From: a virus | Lineage: Duplodnaviria > Heunggongvirae > Uroviricota > Caudoviricetes | Direction: 5' to 3' (one strand) | IMG/VR virus record: IMGVR_UViG_2703718858_000001 | Coordinates: 1 to 39,617 of that record | Length of the DNA: 39,617 nt | Shown here: positions 1,289-39,617 of the stretch, one piece after another | Layout: each line of letters begins with the position of its first letter | Position numbering within the stretch: position 1 is the first letter of the stretch | Translations under genes and position numbers: made by a program | Notes under the pieces: generated by a model | The model's input: the letters and a program-made list of their open reading frames with translations, nothing else | Database searches by the model: none | Told to the model about the DNA's origin: nothing

Positions 1289-1771
1289 CTATCTGGTCAG
1301 GGTGTCGTACTGTTTTTCGCAGACTCTTCCGGCTTCGGCTGCCCGGTCAGCATACTCTGCCAGTTGTCTGTTTCTCTCGAGAGATTTGCTGAGCACGTCG
1401 GCAAGCAAAACTCCGGTGTCTGCGGCTGACGTCCCAGCGCCGACAATGGCGTTATACTGCCTGAGCTGCTCACGGATGGCAAAGAGTTGTTGCTGCAACC
1501 GGCCAGCGCGAGCGGCAGCATCAAGAGCATCATTGCGCGCCTGGTCGATCCTCTGCTGCGCTTCACGTTCATTGATCGATTTCTCCTGTTCGTAGTGCTG
1601 ACGAACTCTCTCATCTTCAGCTTTGCGGTCTTCCTTCGCCTGCGCATACCCGGCGTCGTACTGACGACTGCCGTGTGCATTCCAGGCTACAACTCATGAT
1701 ATGACCAGAACAGCAAGCATCGCCATGATAACCAACTGTTTCCAGTATGCTTTTGCGAATGCCAAGATCAT
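1289..1771 (-). pseudogene. i-spanin (Rz-like) interrupted by in-frame TGA at 1694-1696
   Basis: ATG at 1771 overlaps endolysin stop (ATGA); 25-codon hydrophobic N-terminus [25 protein letters not shown], then TGA, then same-frame coiled-coil periplasmic domain to stop at 1289. Confidence 0.6.
1297..1533 (-). CDS. o-spanin (Rz1-like) lipoprotein embedded in Rz in +1 frame
   Basis: MMLLMLPLALAGCS lipobox, Pro-rich 78 aa, fully nested within Rz reading frame region. Confidence 0.7.
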   Translation of the reverse strand: MMLLMLPLALAGCSNNSLPSVSSSGSITPLSALGRQPQTPEFCLPTCSANLSRETDNWQSMLTGQPKPEESAKNSTTP

Positions 1772-25578: not shown

Positions 25579-25655
25579 GTGGCATTAGCTCAGTTGGACA
25601 GAGCAACCGCCTTCTAAGCGGTTGGTCGCAGGTTCGAATCCTGCATGCCACGCCA
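25579..25655 (+). tRNA. tRNA-Arg (anticodon UCU), phage-encoded
   Basis: Perfect 7-bp acceptor stem GTGGCAT/ATGCCAC, U8, D-arm GCTC..GAGC with GG, anticodon stem ACCGC/GCGGT, loop CTTCTAA, T-arm GCAGG-TTCGAAT-CCTGC, discriminator G and CCA. Confidence 0.9.
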
Positions 25656-29355: not shown

Positions 29356-29911
29356 CACTTCACCTCCTGCGGCGGTTCCGGTAGCGGCATCCAGTGGGTT
29401 ACATTGCGACTCTGTGTTTCGAAAAATTCATCACCATTGCGGACAATATCGAAAAACTCTCCGTCTCGATATTGCGCTAAAGAACGAATGCGCCATCACA
29501 TAAAATAATTACGTGCTGACCATCCTCTGGCATTCGCTCACTACAGCTTATCCAACTATCCTGAGTTACCGGAGAGTTGCCAGCGGCCTCGGGCATATCC
29601 GGACCTTTGCGAATAGCCTTTGCAAGCTCAACAGGGTCATCGTAAAGCCAGTCGCCAGTTTGTGGGTGATTTGCTTCTGCAAGCTGCGCAGCCCATTCAA
29701 GACCATCTTTTTGACCTTGGAGATAATCAAGCGGCAACTCTTCATGATTACTTGCAGGTTCTGCACTATCAGCTTCGCGCCGCTTCTGTAGCTCTGCTGC
29801 CATCGCTCTCACGACTTCAACTGGTGCCCTTGCAGCAAACTCTATGTTGGTGATTAGCTCATTAAGATATTGCTCGCCTGGATACTGTTTCTTATCGGTT
29901 ATAGTGGTCAT
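29355..29911 (-). pseudogene. DUF551-family protein, frameshifted
   Basis: Frame A (29480-29911) ends ...HVIILCDGAFVL*; hallmark C-terminus ...VTHWMPLPEPPQEVK* is in another frame (29355-29495). Confidence 0.55.
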
Positions 29912-35090: not shown

Positions 35091-35908
35091 AACCGGGAAT
35101 TTATTTCGACATCAGCAACGAAGACTACCACGCCGGTGACGGCGTGAGTAAGTCGCAACTGGACATGGTTGCCAAGAATCCGGCGCTTCTTAAATGGGTC
35201 CAGGCAGCACCAGAAGACGAAGAGAAAAAGTCTGCACTGGATATTGGAACCGCATTGCACTGTCTGCTTCTGGAGCCTGGAGAATTCGACAAACGCTTCA
35301 TTGTTTCACCGAAGTTCGATCGTCGGACGAAACAAGGTAAAGCTGACGAAGAAGCATTTCTTCGTGATGTAGCGGATATGGGGATTACGGTACTTGATGC
35401 CGAGCAGTGGCGGAAACTGGAGCTGATGCGTGATAGCGCAATGGCTCACCCGGCGGCACGCTGGGTGCTGGAAGCACCTGGTTACTGCGAAGCATCAATG
35501 TACTGGAATGATGAAGAGACTGGTGAGTTGTGCCGCATTCGTCCAGACAAATGGCTGAACGAGCACAACGTGATCGTCGACGTGAAAAAGGTTGCAGATA
35601 TGGACCGTTTTGCACGCCACATCGAGGAATTCCGCTACCACGTGCAGGACGCAATGTACCGCGAAGGTGCAATGAGGGTTACTGGTCAGCCGCATGGTTT
35701 TTTCTTTCTTGCCGTGAGCGAAAGCATTGATTGTGGTCGGTATCCGGTACGCGTGTTCGAGCTGGATGCGCCGGATGTCGATGCCGGGCACGCTCTGTTC
35801 CGCCGGGATCTGAATACCTATCACGAATGCCGCATCAACGATGAGTGGGGCGGAGTGGAAATTATTAAACGCCCTGACTGGGCACGTAAACAGGATATAT
35901 ACGTATGA
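35087..35908 (+). CDS. PD-(D/E)XK exonuclease (RecE/exodeoxyribonuclease VIII-like)
   Basis: MKPGIYFDISNEDYHAG N-terminus, RPD...IVDVKK motif; coupled to RecT. Confidence 0.75.
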   Translation: MKPGIYFDISNEDYHAGDGVSKSQLDMVAKNPALLKWVQAAPEDEEKKSALDIGTALHCLLLEPGEFDKRFIVSPKFDRRTKQGKADEEAFLRDVADMGITVLDAEQWRKLELMRDSAMAHPAARWVLEAPGYCEASMYWNDEETGELCRIRPDKWLNEHNVIVDVKKVADMDRFARHIEEFRYHVQDAMYREGAMRVTGQPHGFFFLAVSESIDCGRYPVRVFELDAPDVDAGHALFRRDLNTYHECRINDEWGGVEIIKRPDWARKQDIYV

Positions 35909-36822
35909 GCAACGAAATTGCAATCACCAATGATGTGTTGGCTATTCGGGGAATCGATGAAGTTACATGGAGCGCTCTGAAAAACAGTATTTACCCTGGG
36001 GCAAAAGATGAATCGGTAATGATGGCAGTCGATTACTGCCGGGCGCGTCAACTCGATCCTCTTCTTAAGCCGGTACACCTGGTACCAATGAGTGTTAAAG
36101 ACTCGAAGAGTGGAAAGAATGAATGGCGCGACGTGGTCATGCCTGGCATTGGACTTTATCGCATTCAGGCCTACCGTTCCGGCGATTACGCAGGCGCTAA
36201 TGAACCTGAGTTCGGTCCAGATGTAACACAAACGCTTTCAGGCGTGGAGGTTACCTTCCCTCAGTGGTGTAAGTACACCGTCAGCAAGCGAATGGCAAGC
36301 GGGGAAATCGTAGAGTTTAGCGCCAAAGAATACTGGATTGAGAACTATGCAACTGGGGGGCGTGACACATCGGCACCAAATGCCATGTGGAAAAAGCGCC
36401 CTTATGCGCAGTTGGCAAAATGCGCAGAGGCACAGGCATTACGTAAAGCATGGCCGGAGATTGGTCAACAAGCCACAGCTGAGGAAATGGAAGGTAAATA
36501 TATCGACTCACCTGACATTATTGAACGTGACGTAACTCCAAGAAGTCAGGCAAAGCACGGCACAGCATCCAGCATGAACAGTCTGATCAACGCTAAACCA
36601 GCGAAAAAGCCTGATGAGCAAACGCGTAAATCGGACAGCCGTGATCCAGAAGAAATGCTGATGGCCTTTACCAGCGCAGCGATGAACTACAGCACTGTCT
36701 CCGAACTGGATAAGGCTTACAAATACATTGCACAAAAACTTTCAGATGATGACGAACTGCTGGCAAAAGCCACCGACGTTTACAGCGTTCGTCGGGAAGA
36801 ATTAAACGAAACATCTATGTAA
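35905..36822 (+). CDS. recT: RecT-family single-strand annealing recombinase
   Basis: 305 aa directly after exonuclease with ATGA overlap. Confidence 0.75.
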   Translation: MSNEIAITNDVLAIRGIDEVTWSALKNSIYPGAKDESVMMAVDYCRARQLDPLLKPVHLVPMSVKDSKSGKNEWRDVVMPGIGLYRIQAYRSGDYAGANEPEFGPDVTQTLSGVEVTFPQWCKYTVSKRMASGEIVEFSAKEYWIENYATGGRDTSAPNAMWKKRPYAQLAKCAEAQALRKAWPEIGQQATAEEMEGKYIDSPDIIERDVTPRSQAKHGTASSMNSLINAKPAKKPDEQTRKSDSRDPEEMLMAFTSAAMNYSTVSELDKAYKYIAQKLSDDDELLAKATDVYSVRREELNETSM

Positions 36823-37229: not shown

Positions 37230-37529
37230 GTGAGAAAGTTAAGCCGACTTGAAAAATATCACATGAACAAGGTTTCAATGCGCAGCCCTTCAAAGATTGT
37301 CGCCGTTACTCCTGCGGCGATAGAGATCGAAAAACGCGCGATTGAAAGAGAGAAAAAAGGGCAATTCCGCATTGCCGCTCACCTTTGGCTTCAGTGTATG
37401 GATGTTGCTTCTGGTGATGTTGAGCGTGCAAGGATCGCGGTTCGCAGGGACCAATGTATCACAAAAGGTAACGGCCTTCGCCGTGGCGACTATAGCGGCA
37501 TAGGATGTTGCGGGGTGGTTTATGACTAA
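37230..37529 (+). CDS. Hypothetical protein
   Basis: GTG start with GAGAGGG SD; overlaps methyltransferase start. Confidence 0.45.
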   Translation: MRKLSRLEKYHMNKVSMRSPSKIVAVTPAAIEIEKRAIEREKKGQFRIAAHLWLQCMDVASGDVERARIAVRRDQCITKGNGLRRGDYSGIGCCGVVYD

Positions 37530-38172
37530 GAAATACACGCTAATCTATGCAGATCCACCCTGGGTATACCGGGACAAAGCCGCAGATGGTAATCGCGGTG
37601 CCGGTTTTAAATATCCGGTTATGAGTGTGCTGGATATCTGCCGCCTTCCTGTGTGGGATTTGGCCGATGAAAACTGTCTGTTGGCCATGTGGTGGGTGCC
37701 AACACAACCACTCGAAGCACTAAAAGTTGTTGAAGCCTAGGGATTCCGTCTGATGACCATGAAGGGTTTCACGTGGATAAAATGTGGTAGTCGACAACCA
37801 GATAAACTGGTTATGGGTATGGGACACATGACTCGCGCCAATAGTGAAGATTGCCTGTTTGCGGTAAAGGGAAAACTACCTCCGCGCATTAATGCAGGGA
37901 TCGTTCAGTCATTTACCGCACCGCGGCTTGAGCATTCAAGAAAACCAGATGTCGTTCGTGAAAAACTTGTGCAATTGTTAGGCGATGTTTCTCGCATTGA
38001 ACTGTTCGCCCGCCAGTCGTCTCATGGTTTCGATGTTTGGGGTAATCAGTGCGAAGACCCGGCAGTGCAACTACATCCTGGATACGCGTTGGATATTGGC
38101 GGATTAACAAATGCATTCAGCAATGCTCCGCTGTCACCAACAGACAACCAGGGGCAGGAGCGTGCAGCATGA
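37522..38172 (+). pseudogene. MT-A70-family N6-adenine DNA methyltransferase with in-frame amber (TAG 37738-37740)
   Basis: N-terminus ...YADPPW...; ORFs 37522-37740 and 37753-38172 are in one frame; the TAG sits in ...LKVVEA*GF..., where I expect W from recalled homologues (AWGF). Confidence 0.7.
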
Positions 38173-38363
38173 ACAGGGCATCACCAGCAGATTTAAGGAA
38201 ATGCCTTGAAACTGCAAACATGCTTGCACACAGCGGGATCAGGTTTGTTCCAATTCCCGCTGTCACTGATGCTGAATTTGCAACACTGTCAGCAATATTC
38301 GCAGATAAAATTGAATCACTGGCAGCAGAAGCCGAGATGGAAGAAAATCAGCAGAATAATTAA
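38169..38363 (+). CDS. Small hypothetical protein
   Basis: ATG 38169 with CAGGAG SD, ATGA overlap with methyltransferase stop. Confidence 0.45.
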   Translation: MNRASPADLRKCLETANMLAHSGIRFVPIPAVTDAEFATLSAIFADKIESLAAEAEMEENQQNN

Positions 38364-38366
38364 ACG

Positions 38367-39617
38367 TTATTCCCCCGCCATCCACTTCTCAAACTTCGAC
38401 GGGGAGAACGGAATCAGATCCGTATGCTCCCCGTTAATCCAGGAATCAATCATATCGGCCCACTGCTGCAACATGTAGGCGCGCTGTCTGGCGTATTCCG
38501 CTTTGTTATATACGGCGCGCACACCTTTCTGCTCATGTGCCAGAGCCTTTTCAATCCAGTCTGAAGGATAACCAGCCTCATGCAACAACGTACTGGCTGT
38601 ACGGCGCATATCGTGTACGGTGAAGCCCTGAATATGCTCACCATCTTCATTTATTATTTTCACCGTTCTGTCGATCAGAGAGTTCAGCGCGGCATTAGAT
38701 AATGGCTTCCGGAAATTGTAACGACCAGGAACCAGATATTCACTTCCACCAGCGCACATCTGCAACCCGACCAATATATCCTGAGCCTGTTTAGGCAGGT
38801 AAATAACGTGCGCCCGGCTTCCCTTCATGCGGTCTGAAGGAATTGTCCATGTCCATTTTTTAAAATCTATTTCATCCCACGTTGCGTTGGTGAATTCGCC
38901 TTTACGAACCATAGTGATAAGCACCAGCTTTAAAGCCATTTTCATAGTGCCCATAGCACCAATGGCATCCAGCGTGCGGAAGAACAGGCCAATTTCTTCT
39001 GGTGTCAGTGTTCGCTCTCGTGGTTTAAATATGGCGATAGACGAAGGTTTAATGTCAGCCGCAGGATTAAACAAACCATGACCACGGTCATTGGCGTGAC
39101 GGTATACGCTGCTGATGATCTCCCTGGCCTGTACTGCTGTTGCCCGACCACCACGTTCGACAATCCGGTCACACAAATCACGAACCATCGATGTGGTAAT
39201 TTCAGCCATCATTTTGTTGCCAAGAACCGGAAGTATGTCACGGTCGATCACCGCCTGCTTCATTGCTCGGGTACTGTCAGCCAGGATGACGTGTTTCATA
39301 TAACTGTCGGTATGTACCGCAAACGTCTCGGCACCACGAATCTTTTTGATACCGTCACGTTTAGCCGCAGCCGGCGACTGGCCTGCTTTAAGCAGCTTCT
39401 TTGCAGCAATCAGTTCTTCTCGCGCTTCTGCTAGACTGATACCGTCACGCCCATACTGCCCGATTACCAGTGTTTCGCGGCGACCGTTGATACGGTAGTC
39501 ATAGCGAAACGAGACCGTGCCTGACGTAAGCACAGCTACATACAGCCCGTCACGATCGGAGACCTTGTACAGTTTGTCCTGCGGCTTGAGGTTTTTTAAT
39601 TTTGTATCGGTAAGCAC
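38367..39617 (-). CDS. int: Tyrosine integrase, partial (runs off window edge)
   Basis: N-terminus (V/M)LTDTKLKNLKP..., HDMRRT box and C-terminal Tyr region; first codon at 39617 is GTG, true start likely just beyond window. Confidence 0.85.
   Translation of the reverse strand: MLTDTKLKNLKPQDKLYKVSDRDGLYVAVLTSGTVSFRYDYRINGRRETLVIGQYGRDGISLAEAREELIAAKKLLKAGQSPAAAKRDGIKKIRGAETFAVHTDSYMKHVILADSTRAMKQAVIDRDILPVLGNKMMAEITTSMVRDLCDRIVERGGRATAVQAREIISSVYRHANDRGHGLFNPAADIKPSSIAIFKPRERTLTPEEIGLFFRTLDAIGAMGTMKMALKLVLITMVRKGEFTNATWDEIDFKKWTWTIPSDRMKGSRAHVIYLPKQAQDILVGLQMCAGGSEYLVPGRYNFRKPLSNAALNSLIDRTVKIINEDGEHIQGFTVHDMRRTASTLLHEAGYPSDWIEKALAHEQKGVRAVYNKAEYARQRAYMLQQWADMIDSWINGEHTDLIPFSPSKFEKWMAGE

Follow-up and report, generated by a model that had tools for sequence, protein, structure and literature searches.

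The locus studied here raises the question of whether an amber codon in the middle of a prophage methyltransferase gene records a genuine loss of function and, if so, by what kind of mutation it arose. We found that a TAG codon at positions 37738–37740 breaks an otherwise complete gene for an MT-A70 methyltransferase, which occupies positions 37522–38172, and we consider it very likely that this is an evolutionarily recent loss-of-function allele of the MT-A70 methyltransferase gene of phiV10-type prophages.

The stretch of DNA that was analysed (39,617 nucleotides, referred to throughout as the window) consists of an integrated phiV10-like (Uetakevirus) prophage together with one host flank, the integration site lying between yfgI and guaA. 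The host genes yfgH and yfgI fill the first ~1.1 kb of the window, and the prophage integrase, which adjoins guaA in related lysogens, is its last gene. At every variable site the window agrees with contig LCVI01000056.1 (GCA_001637715.1) of E. coli RiKo 2308/09, a commensal ST167 strain from the faeces of a healthy cow (PMC4966475). The region is 98–99% identical to Escherichia phage phiV10 and other Uetakevirus phages, as well as to prophages in ~540 of 5,426 complete E. coli genomes. MB31 was considered as a carrier of the same prophage and rejected; its host junction is a 100% match, but its prophage is a mosaic relative. The operon order shared with relatives is AlpA, a small membrane ORF, PerC, MT-A70, DUF1382 and integrase, and the window has the following features at this end of the prophage.

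37230–37529, plus strand: PerC-family ORF of 99 aa (Pfam PerC, E = 6e-07), with the same gene order annotated in relatives.
37522–38172, plus strand: predicted MT-A70 methyltransferase pseudogene of 216 codons, broken at codon 73, orthologue of phiV10 PhiV10p33.
37522–37740, plus strand: ORF for the N-terminal fragment, 72 aa, with DPPW at residues 11–14 and ending in TAG, deposited as OAC34621.1.
37738–37740, plus strand: amber codon TAG in place of Trp73 (TGG).
37753–38172, plus strand: ORF for the C-terminal fragment, 139 aa, without the catalytic motif, deposited as OAC34622.1.
38169–38363, plus strand: DUF1382 gene (Pfam DUF1382, E = 1.3e-30), 100% identical to phiV10 p32.
38367–39617, minus strand: intact tyrosine integrase gene at the guaA-side end of the prophage, full length and 99.5% identical to the phiV10 integrase.

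The two fragment ORFs share one reading frame and are separated only by the TAG and four sense codons (GGA TTC CGT CTG), as a preliminary description of this DNA had stated, and when the frame is read through from 37522 to 38172 it holds a single internal stop (...LKVVEA*GFRLMTMKG...). With the tryptophan restored, the translated product matches the Pfam MT-A70 profile (PF05063) over its entire length (profile positions 1–172 of 172; 78.6 bits against a cut-off of 23.9; E = 7e-22), which bears out the further claim that the joined protein is a complete MT-A70-type enzyme with a DPPW motif near its N-terminus. Taken separately, the fragments cover profile positions 1–51 and 73–172, and at the window locus the frame across the whole MT-A70 domain is interrupted by the TAG at codon 73. 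The enzyme had also been described as an adenine methyltransferase; its place in the MT-A70 family is upheld by the Pfam match, whereas the label of DNA adenine methyltransferase may be too narrow, given that a close relative is reported to act on rRNA. The gene is tightly packed between its neighbours, as the 3′ end of the PerC-family ORF overlaps its start by 8 nt and the ATG of the DUF1382 gene overlaps its stop (ATGA). Because of the latter overlap DUF1382 is probably translationally coupled to the methyltransferase, and the same arrangement suggests that the premature stop may lower the expression of DUF1382.

The ancestral state of the interrupted codon is evident from close relatives. 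In a DNA alignment, codon 73 is TGG in phiV10, ZX5, TL-2011b and E. coli AR_0086 and A287, all five of which carry an uninterrupted 651-bp gene, and the window departs from them at this codon by a single G-to-A transition at 37739. PhiV10p33 and the ~540 annotated copies represent the same gene in the same place, with 216 codons and a DNA identity of 98–99%; PhiV10p33 and the E. coli MT-A70 copies are intact at codon 73, whereas the window has TAG. Several hundred intact copies share 98–99% DNA identity with the gene, so the match is far beyond chance, and the window protein is 98.6% identical to phiV10 p33, with the stop at position 73. Among the 120 best homologues (60–98% identity), the column of Trp73 holds Trp in 118 of the 119 homologues aligned there. 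The residue sits within a near-invariant A-W-G-F-R-L segment and aligns with the Trp of 'ENWGY' in the solved structures of Tetrahymena MTA1. The preliminary description had proposed a single TGG-to-TAG change at a conserved Trp of 'AWGF' and had suggested alignment to intact homologues as a check; that alignment returned TGG in all close relatives examined. Homologues without the Trp that naturally end or restart here would have pointed the other way; the close relatives instead read TGG in genes that run uninterrupted.

Judged on its sequence, the window locus is a non-working pseudogene of an MT-A70 family member. Translation would end after 72 residues, so that the DPPW motif would be kept and about two thirds of the MT-A70 domain lost, and a product restarted at the ATG at 37753 would be without the catalytic motif. 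Neither fragment should be active alone, and only amber suppression in the host should allow an active enzyme to be made.

The position of the mutation suggests how it came about, as it falls within a pentanucleotide of the kind recognised by Dcm.

37736–37740, plus strand: former Dcm site, ancestral CCTGG (within GCC TGG GG) changed to CCTAG; relatives have TGG.

Position 37739 is the fourth base, a G, of the ancestral CCTGG, and the change is G:C to A:T. Dcm methylates the inner cytosine of its site on both strands. The base opposite G37739 is the inner C of the bottom-strand CCAGG, which would have been 5-methylated; its deamination to thymine would turn the top strand into CCTAG and the codon from TGG into TAG. 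From this context, and presuming Dcm methylation in the host, we think that the allele probably originated by deamination of 5-methylcytosine at the Dcm site. The methyltransferase gene contains four Dcm sites. Of the 81 single-base nonsense changes possible in the gene, 24 are transitions, and only three of the 81, at Trp14, Trp73 and Gln210, are products of Dcm deamination, all three leading to amber. In recent large mutation data sets CCWGG is still listed among the hot spots, for G:C to A:T changes at the methylated base (PMC13250602). Fixed differences from phiV10 and MB31, counted prophage-wide, showed no excess of transitions at Dcm-target positions (7 of 188, against 553 of 16120 other C/G positions; p = 0.47), in a test that has low power for rare, young alleles. 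The sister hot spot, Trp14 to TAG, occurred in 0 of 540 places in complete genomes, a test that likewise has low power, given that complete genomes lack the Trp73 amber as well.

The TAG allele is rare. A 48-mer that avoids nearby polymorphisms found it in none of 425 places in complete E. coli genomes, a 61-mer search of the complete E. coli genomes returned no TAG copy either, and an exact 34-mer containing the TAG was absent from IMG/VR, from JGI metagenome contigs and from GTDB species representatives. Exact look-up of the 72-aa product recovered the same TAG in SRR8581360, SRR13434681/SRR13434509 and ERZ1309537, and a variant product led to another carrier, SRR29118809. Besides the window, at least four public assemblies with differing backgrounds thus carry the TAG, in a survey that is biased towards the 72-aa product because the look-ups used exact sequences encoded in the window. 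Contigs that end at codon 72 (L011, L013, L014 and L016) were considered as within-sample polymorphism and rejected as contig-end truncations; we gave them no weight, since truncations of this kind also made up most of the result (five of the six places shown) when a 57-aa product was looked up as a control.

The backgrounds on which the TAG occurs were compared over 944 aligned bases, with site 37739 excluded. The copy nearest to the window is that of AR_0086 (TGG, 11 differences), the copy nearest to SRR8581360 is that of N39 (TGG, 5 differences), and the copy nearest to SRR13434681 is that of MFDS1019527 (TGG, 10 differences). The nearest copies to SRR29118809, in which the downstream gene is a phosphatase gene in place of DUF1382, are other non-TAG copies at 16–17 differences. 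Pairwise, the TAG copies differ by 13–26 bases; they are monophyletic in 0 of 200 bootstrap replicates, and parsimony requires four changes at the TAG site. At least two steps are needed at 34 of the 84 variable sites on the tree, and homoplasy this widespread indicates that recombination is frequent in the region. The tree alone was set aside as proof of independent origins, being weakened by the homoplasy, and a comparison of identical tracts was used instead. Around the site, the identical tract spans 38–246 bp between TAG copies as against 149–794 bp to the best TGG match, and each TAG copy shares a longer tract with a TGG copy than with most other TAG copies.

These data bear on the possibility that the TAG arose once and was then passed between related prophages, through homologous recombination or gene conversion, onto other backgrounds, the Dcm context being coincidental. 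Such a history would accord with the abundance of homoplasious sites, two of which, apart from the TAG site, also need four steps, and with the 218–246 bp of identity around the site that three TAG carriers have in common. We consider it unlikely nonetheless: an allele that is so rare, and hence young, should occupy one haplotype; the identical stretch around the site that links SRR29118809 to the other TAG copies is just 38–104 bp long; over 794 bp, SRR8581360 and the TGG strain N39 differ at base 37739 alone; and several very short conversion patches would be needed. On balance, recurrent mutation is more likely than not and fits better than spread by recombination, because it would be expected to place so rare an allele on several haplotypes. 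We propose that the same rare allele is found on several prophage backgrounds because deamination at the Dcm site recurs.

Other broken alleles of the gene exist. Among the fragment clusters sampled there was one sighting each of Trp57 to TAG (ERZ27313714), Trp58 to TGA (SRR19732832) and Gly74 to TGA (SRR23860345), and the Trp73 amber is the only sampled nonsense allele that is present on several backgrounds. Frameshifts in or near the G-run after the Trp codon were found in ERR14295522, in SRR21979970 and in product P0129, and a 124-aa frameshifted form is present on 27 contigs. In a paralogue with 89% identity, TAA at codon 140 is present on 21 contigs; P0107 (139 aa), which had been a candidate for a C-terminal fragment, is really the N-terminal product of a different paralogue with TAA at codon 140. 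Intact copies, two clusters of which comprise 2,905 and 3,412 sequences, are far commoner than broken ones. Decay of this gene takes many forms and also proceeds without any hot spot.

Two further lesions lie elsewhere in the same prophage.

1289–1771, minus strand: Rz-like spanin gene with an in-frame TGA at codon 26 (1694–1696); the embedded Rz1 gene is intact.
29358–29911, minus strand: DUF551 gene with a change of frame between 29504 and 29399.

Codon 26 of Rz is TGA in the window and GGA in phiV10, and the Rz gene of the MB31 prophage has a different stop, at codon 68, which is flagged 'internal stop' in RefSeq. A tblastn search with the MB31 DUF551 protein returned two pieces, in frames -2 and -1. 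The opal codon in Rz and the DUF551 frameshift had both been named in the preliminary description as signs that accessory genes are decaying while the structural module stays intact, and this account agrees with what we found: none of the packaging, head and tail genes that the prophage has in common with phiV10 is shortened, and the integrase, repressor, replication, holin, endolysin and Rz1 genes are full length too, so that stops are confined to Rz and the methyltransferase, and the frameshift to DUF551. The methyltransferase allele is ordinary prophage decay, a pseudogene of a known kind.

Loss of the enzyme might alternatively have been selected, if inactivation benefits the lysogen, for instance through lower spontaneous induction, with the hot spot merely supplying the knock-outs. 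A precedent comes from the Stx phages PA8 and PA2: spontaneous induction and virulence are both reduced when IS629 interrupts the methyltransferase gene of PA2, and both are rescued by the gene on a plasmid but not by a DPPW-to-APPA mutant (Gong, Chakraborty, Koudelka; PMC10810198). By analogy with the PA8 enzyme, to which the Trp-restored protein is 83% identical, lower spontaneous induction of the prophage would be the expected phenotype of the TAG allele. The many independent knock-outs (four nonsense sites, several frameshifts and the TAA lineage on 21 contigs) would also suit selection. Even so, we find selected loss doubtful, since intact copies vastly outnumber broken ones, with hundreds in complete genomes and clusters of thousands; the absence of the TAG from all 425 places searched in complete genomes gives no sign of a sweep; the accompanying Rz and DUF551 lesions fit unselected decay; and the partner gene differs from that for PNB-2, the partner of the PA8 enzyme, so that the PA8 phenotype may not transfer.

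Could the gene still work despite the stop, either through amber suppression or read-through or as a split enzyme assembled from the 72-aa and 139-aa pieces after re-initiation at 37753? We judge this very improbable. All TAG carriers retain an undamaged downstream ORF, but a very young mutation predicts this equally well. The ATG at 37753 lies 13 nt past the amber stop and is preceded by weak Shine-Dalgarno-like pairing; the pairing is, however, weaker than at real starts (duplex energy of -5.5 kcal/mol, against -7.0 to -7.8 kcal/mol at neighbouring real starts), and on this footing restart would be possible but not favoured. TAG stops are scarce in this phage group (TAG ends 0 of 32 conserved genes in the window, 1 of 55 genes in phiV10 and 4 of 49 in the MB31 prophage), so suppression would cost the phage little; as a test of recoding, stop-codon usage was discarded as uninformative, TAG being rare in the relatives too. 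Natural amber suppressors are uncommon. The window encodes no suppressor tRNA, its sole tRNA being Arg-TCT, and with the relatives reading TGG the locus lacks the marks of programmed recoding or suppression. Moreover, the break falls inside the conserved core, beside an almost invariant Trp, and the rarity of the allele speaks against a maintained functional form.

Least credible of all is that sequencing or assembly put a false A into the consensus at 37739, so that the living strain would have an intact gene, an outcome the preliminary description had allowed for: although the window rests on a single draft assembly and no complete genome has the TAG allele, a base-call error is unlikely because the source is Illumina data at ~70x (101-bp paired reads assembled with SPAdes; PMC4966475) and the identical change is present in at least four other independent assemblies with different pipelines and backgrounds, and the Rz and DUF551 lesions in the same prophage fit real decay.

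The TAG allele is thus best read as a recent loss of function, and current understanding is unchanged by it. Its value is chiefly for annotation, as the deposited proteins OAC34621.1 and OAC34622.1 are halves of one pseudogene, in a prophage that has three lesions, in the methyltransferase, Rz and DUF551 genes.

A close relative of the enzyme is M.EcoPA8orf6770P (gp5 of Stx phage PA8), with which the Trp-restored protein shares 83% identity over 187 residues (E = 1e-123). Both have an N-terminal DPPW motif, and both are encoded near the integrase end of the prophage, directly after a small overlapping or adjacent ORF. The PA8 enzyme alone is nearly inactive; it binds PNB-2, which the upstream gene encodes, in a 1:1 complex with a preference for 16S rRNA, and its C-terminal tail has been proposed to matter for the binding of PNB-2 (PMC10810198). 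For M.EcoGV of E. coli O104:H4, a near-identical relative of the PA8 enzyme, the specificity given for the overproduced protein is GATC (PMC6602927). The window departs from the PA8 system in several respects. The PerC-family ORF shows no similarity to PNB-2 though it is in the equivalent upstream position, and the C-terminal tails of the two enzymes are unalignable from residue 188, the BLASTP alignment ending at 187, so that neither the upstream PNB-2 nor the conserved tail of a PA8-type holoenzyme is found in the window. Further, PA8 is a lambdoid Stx phage whereas the window prophage is a podovirus of the Uetakevirus group, and the knock-out in PA2 is an IS insertion whereas that in the window is a point mutation.

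There are also two bolder readings, which we regard as quite speculative, with the odds well against them: that host Dcm methylation acts as a mutational trigger that repeatedly silences a prophage MT-A70 enzyme controlling spontaneous induction, or that the overlapping PerC-family protein, in place of PNB-2, is the specificity subunit of the phiV10-type enzyme. If the former were true, a single foreseeable base change would make prophages quieter, with lysogens moving that way by drift or by selection; if the latter, there would be a second type of holoenzyme. The natural on and off alleles could help to probe whether the phiV10-type enzyme tunes spontaneous induction, as its relative does in Stx prophages, and whether its PerC-like neighbour is its partner.

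More distantly, Tetrahymena MTA1 and human METTL3 share with the window protein the fold family, a DPPW-type motif and the Trp of '(E/A)WG(Y/F)', and the eukaryotic MT-A70 enzymes need a partner subunit, as has been reported for the PA8 enzyme (PMC10810198). The relationship is remote (E = 4e-13 to 5e-05), and the window protein is a single domain of 216 aa.

For the mutation itself, the closest known counterpart is lacI, in which the amber hot spots are Dcm sites and arise by deamination of 5-methylcytosine (Coulondre et al. 1978, reviewed in PMC12606429). As in the window, the changes at those hot spots are G:C to A:T at the 5-methylated inner cytosine of CCWGG and create TAG. In lacI the change is CAG to TAG and affects the coding strand, whereas in the window it is TGG to TAG and the deaminated cytosine would have been on the non-coding strand; and the mechanism was shown genetically in lacI, whereas in the window sequence context and recurrence point to it. 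The Trp73 allele would accordingly provide a natural example of the textbook Dcm deamination amber outside a laboratory reporter gene, one that has apparently arisen more than once.

Frameshifts have also broken the MT-A70 methyltransferase gene, independently of one another, in other assemblies, at two loci (L026 and L028) and in one public protein product (P0129), each falling in the G-run that follows the Trp codon (TGGGGA; 37739-37743 region in the window) or in its flank. Because these independent frameshift alleles are found there, the TGGGGA stretch is one that both substitutions and indels strike. A methyltransferase paralogue of 89% identity, which adjoins a DnaB-like helicase gene (L021 1501-1920, from SRR29046065), has its reading frame ended instead by TAA at codon 140, the position of the Arg of a conserved SRKP segment. 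As this form is present on 21 contigs (SRR29046065 and 20 similar ones), it looks like a successful truncated lineage.

Other features of the window are as follows.

1-516, host gene yfgH at the window start, not phage
532-1071, host gene yfgI in the host flank, not phage
1289-1771, minus strand, Rz-like spanin gene with an in-frame TGA at codon 26 (1694-1696)
25579-25655, plus strand, prophage-borne tRNA-Arg (anticodon TCT)
29358-29911, minus strand, DUF551 gene, split, with the frame passing from -2 to -1 between 29504 and 29399
37230-37529, plus strand, PerC-family ORF overlapping the methyltransferase start (37522-38172, plus strand) by 8 nt

Since the window begins with yfgH and yfgI, the attR-side end of the prophage is placed somewhere from about 1100 to 1289. 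The window keeps an intact Rz1, and the Rz-like spanin gene of the related MB31 prophage (L007 39289-39771) carries a separate, independent stop at codon 68. The same tRNA-Arg (TCT) is annotated in MB31 too. None of the 32 genes shared with phiV10 ends in TAG in the window (17 end in TGA and 15 in TAA), and in phiV10 itself TAG is the stop of 1 of 55 genes; the absence of TAG among the shared genes (0 of 32, P about 0.07) probably reflects no more than the normal scarcity of this stop in E. coli.

A segment encoding AlpA, PerC, MT-A70 and phosphatase, about 98% identical to the module of the window's temperate podovirus, occurs at 129485-131059 in the record of Escherichia phage BP9 (L037, PP488543.1), a 138-kb Vequintavirus; this record appears to be a chimeric or contaminated assembly.

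The overlap between the PerC-family ORF and the methyltransferase gene, together with two public proteins in which PerC-like and methyltransferase sequences are joined in-frame (P0001, 297 aa; P0002, 263 aa), hints at a functional tie between the two products, although these fusions could equally be indel artefacts.

Compared with phiV10, the recombination module is mosaic (window 35905-36822 versus phiV10 p37): p37 is a single fused RecE-RecT protein of 586 aa, whereas in the window the genes are separate, and for the 305-aa RecT encoded there the identity in the C-terminal part is only about 66%. In Stx phage PA8, the slot held in the window by the PerC-family ORF is occupied by the specificity subunit PNB-2, to which the PerC-family protein is unrelated.
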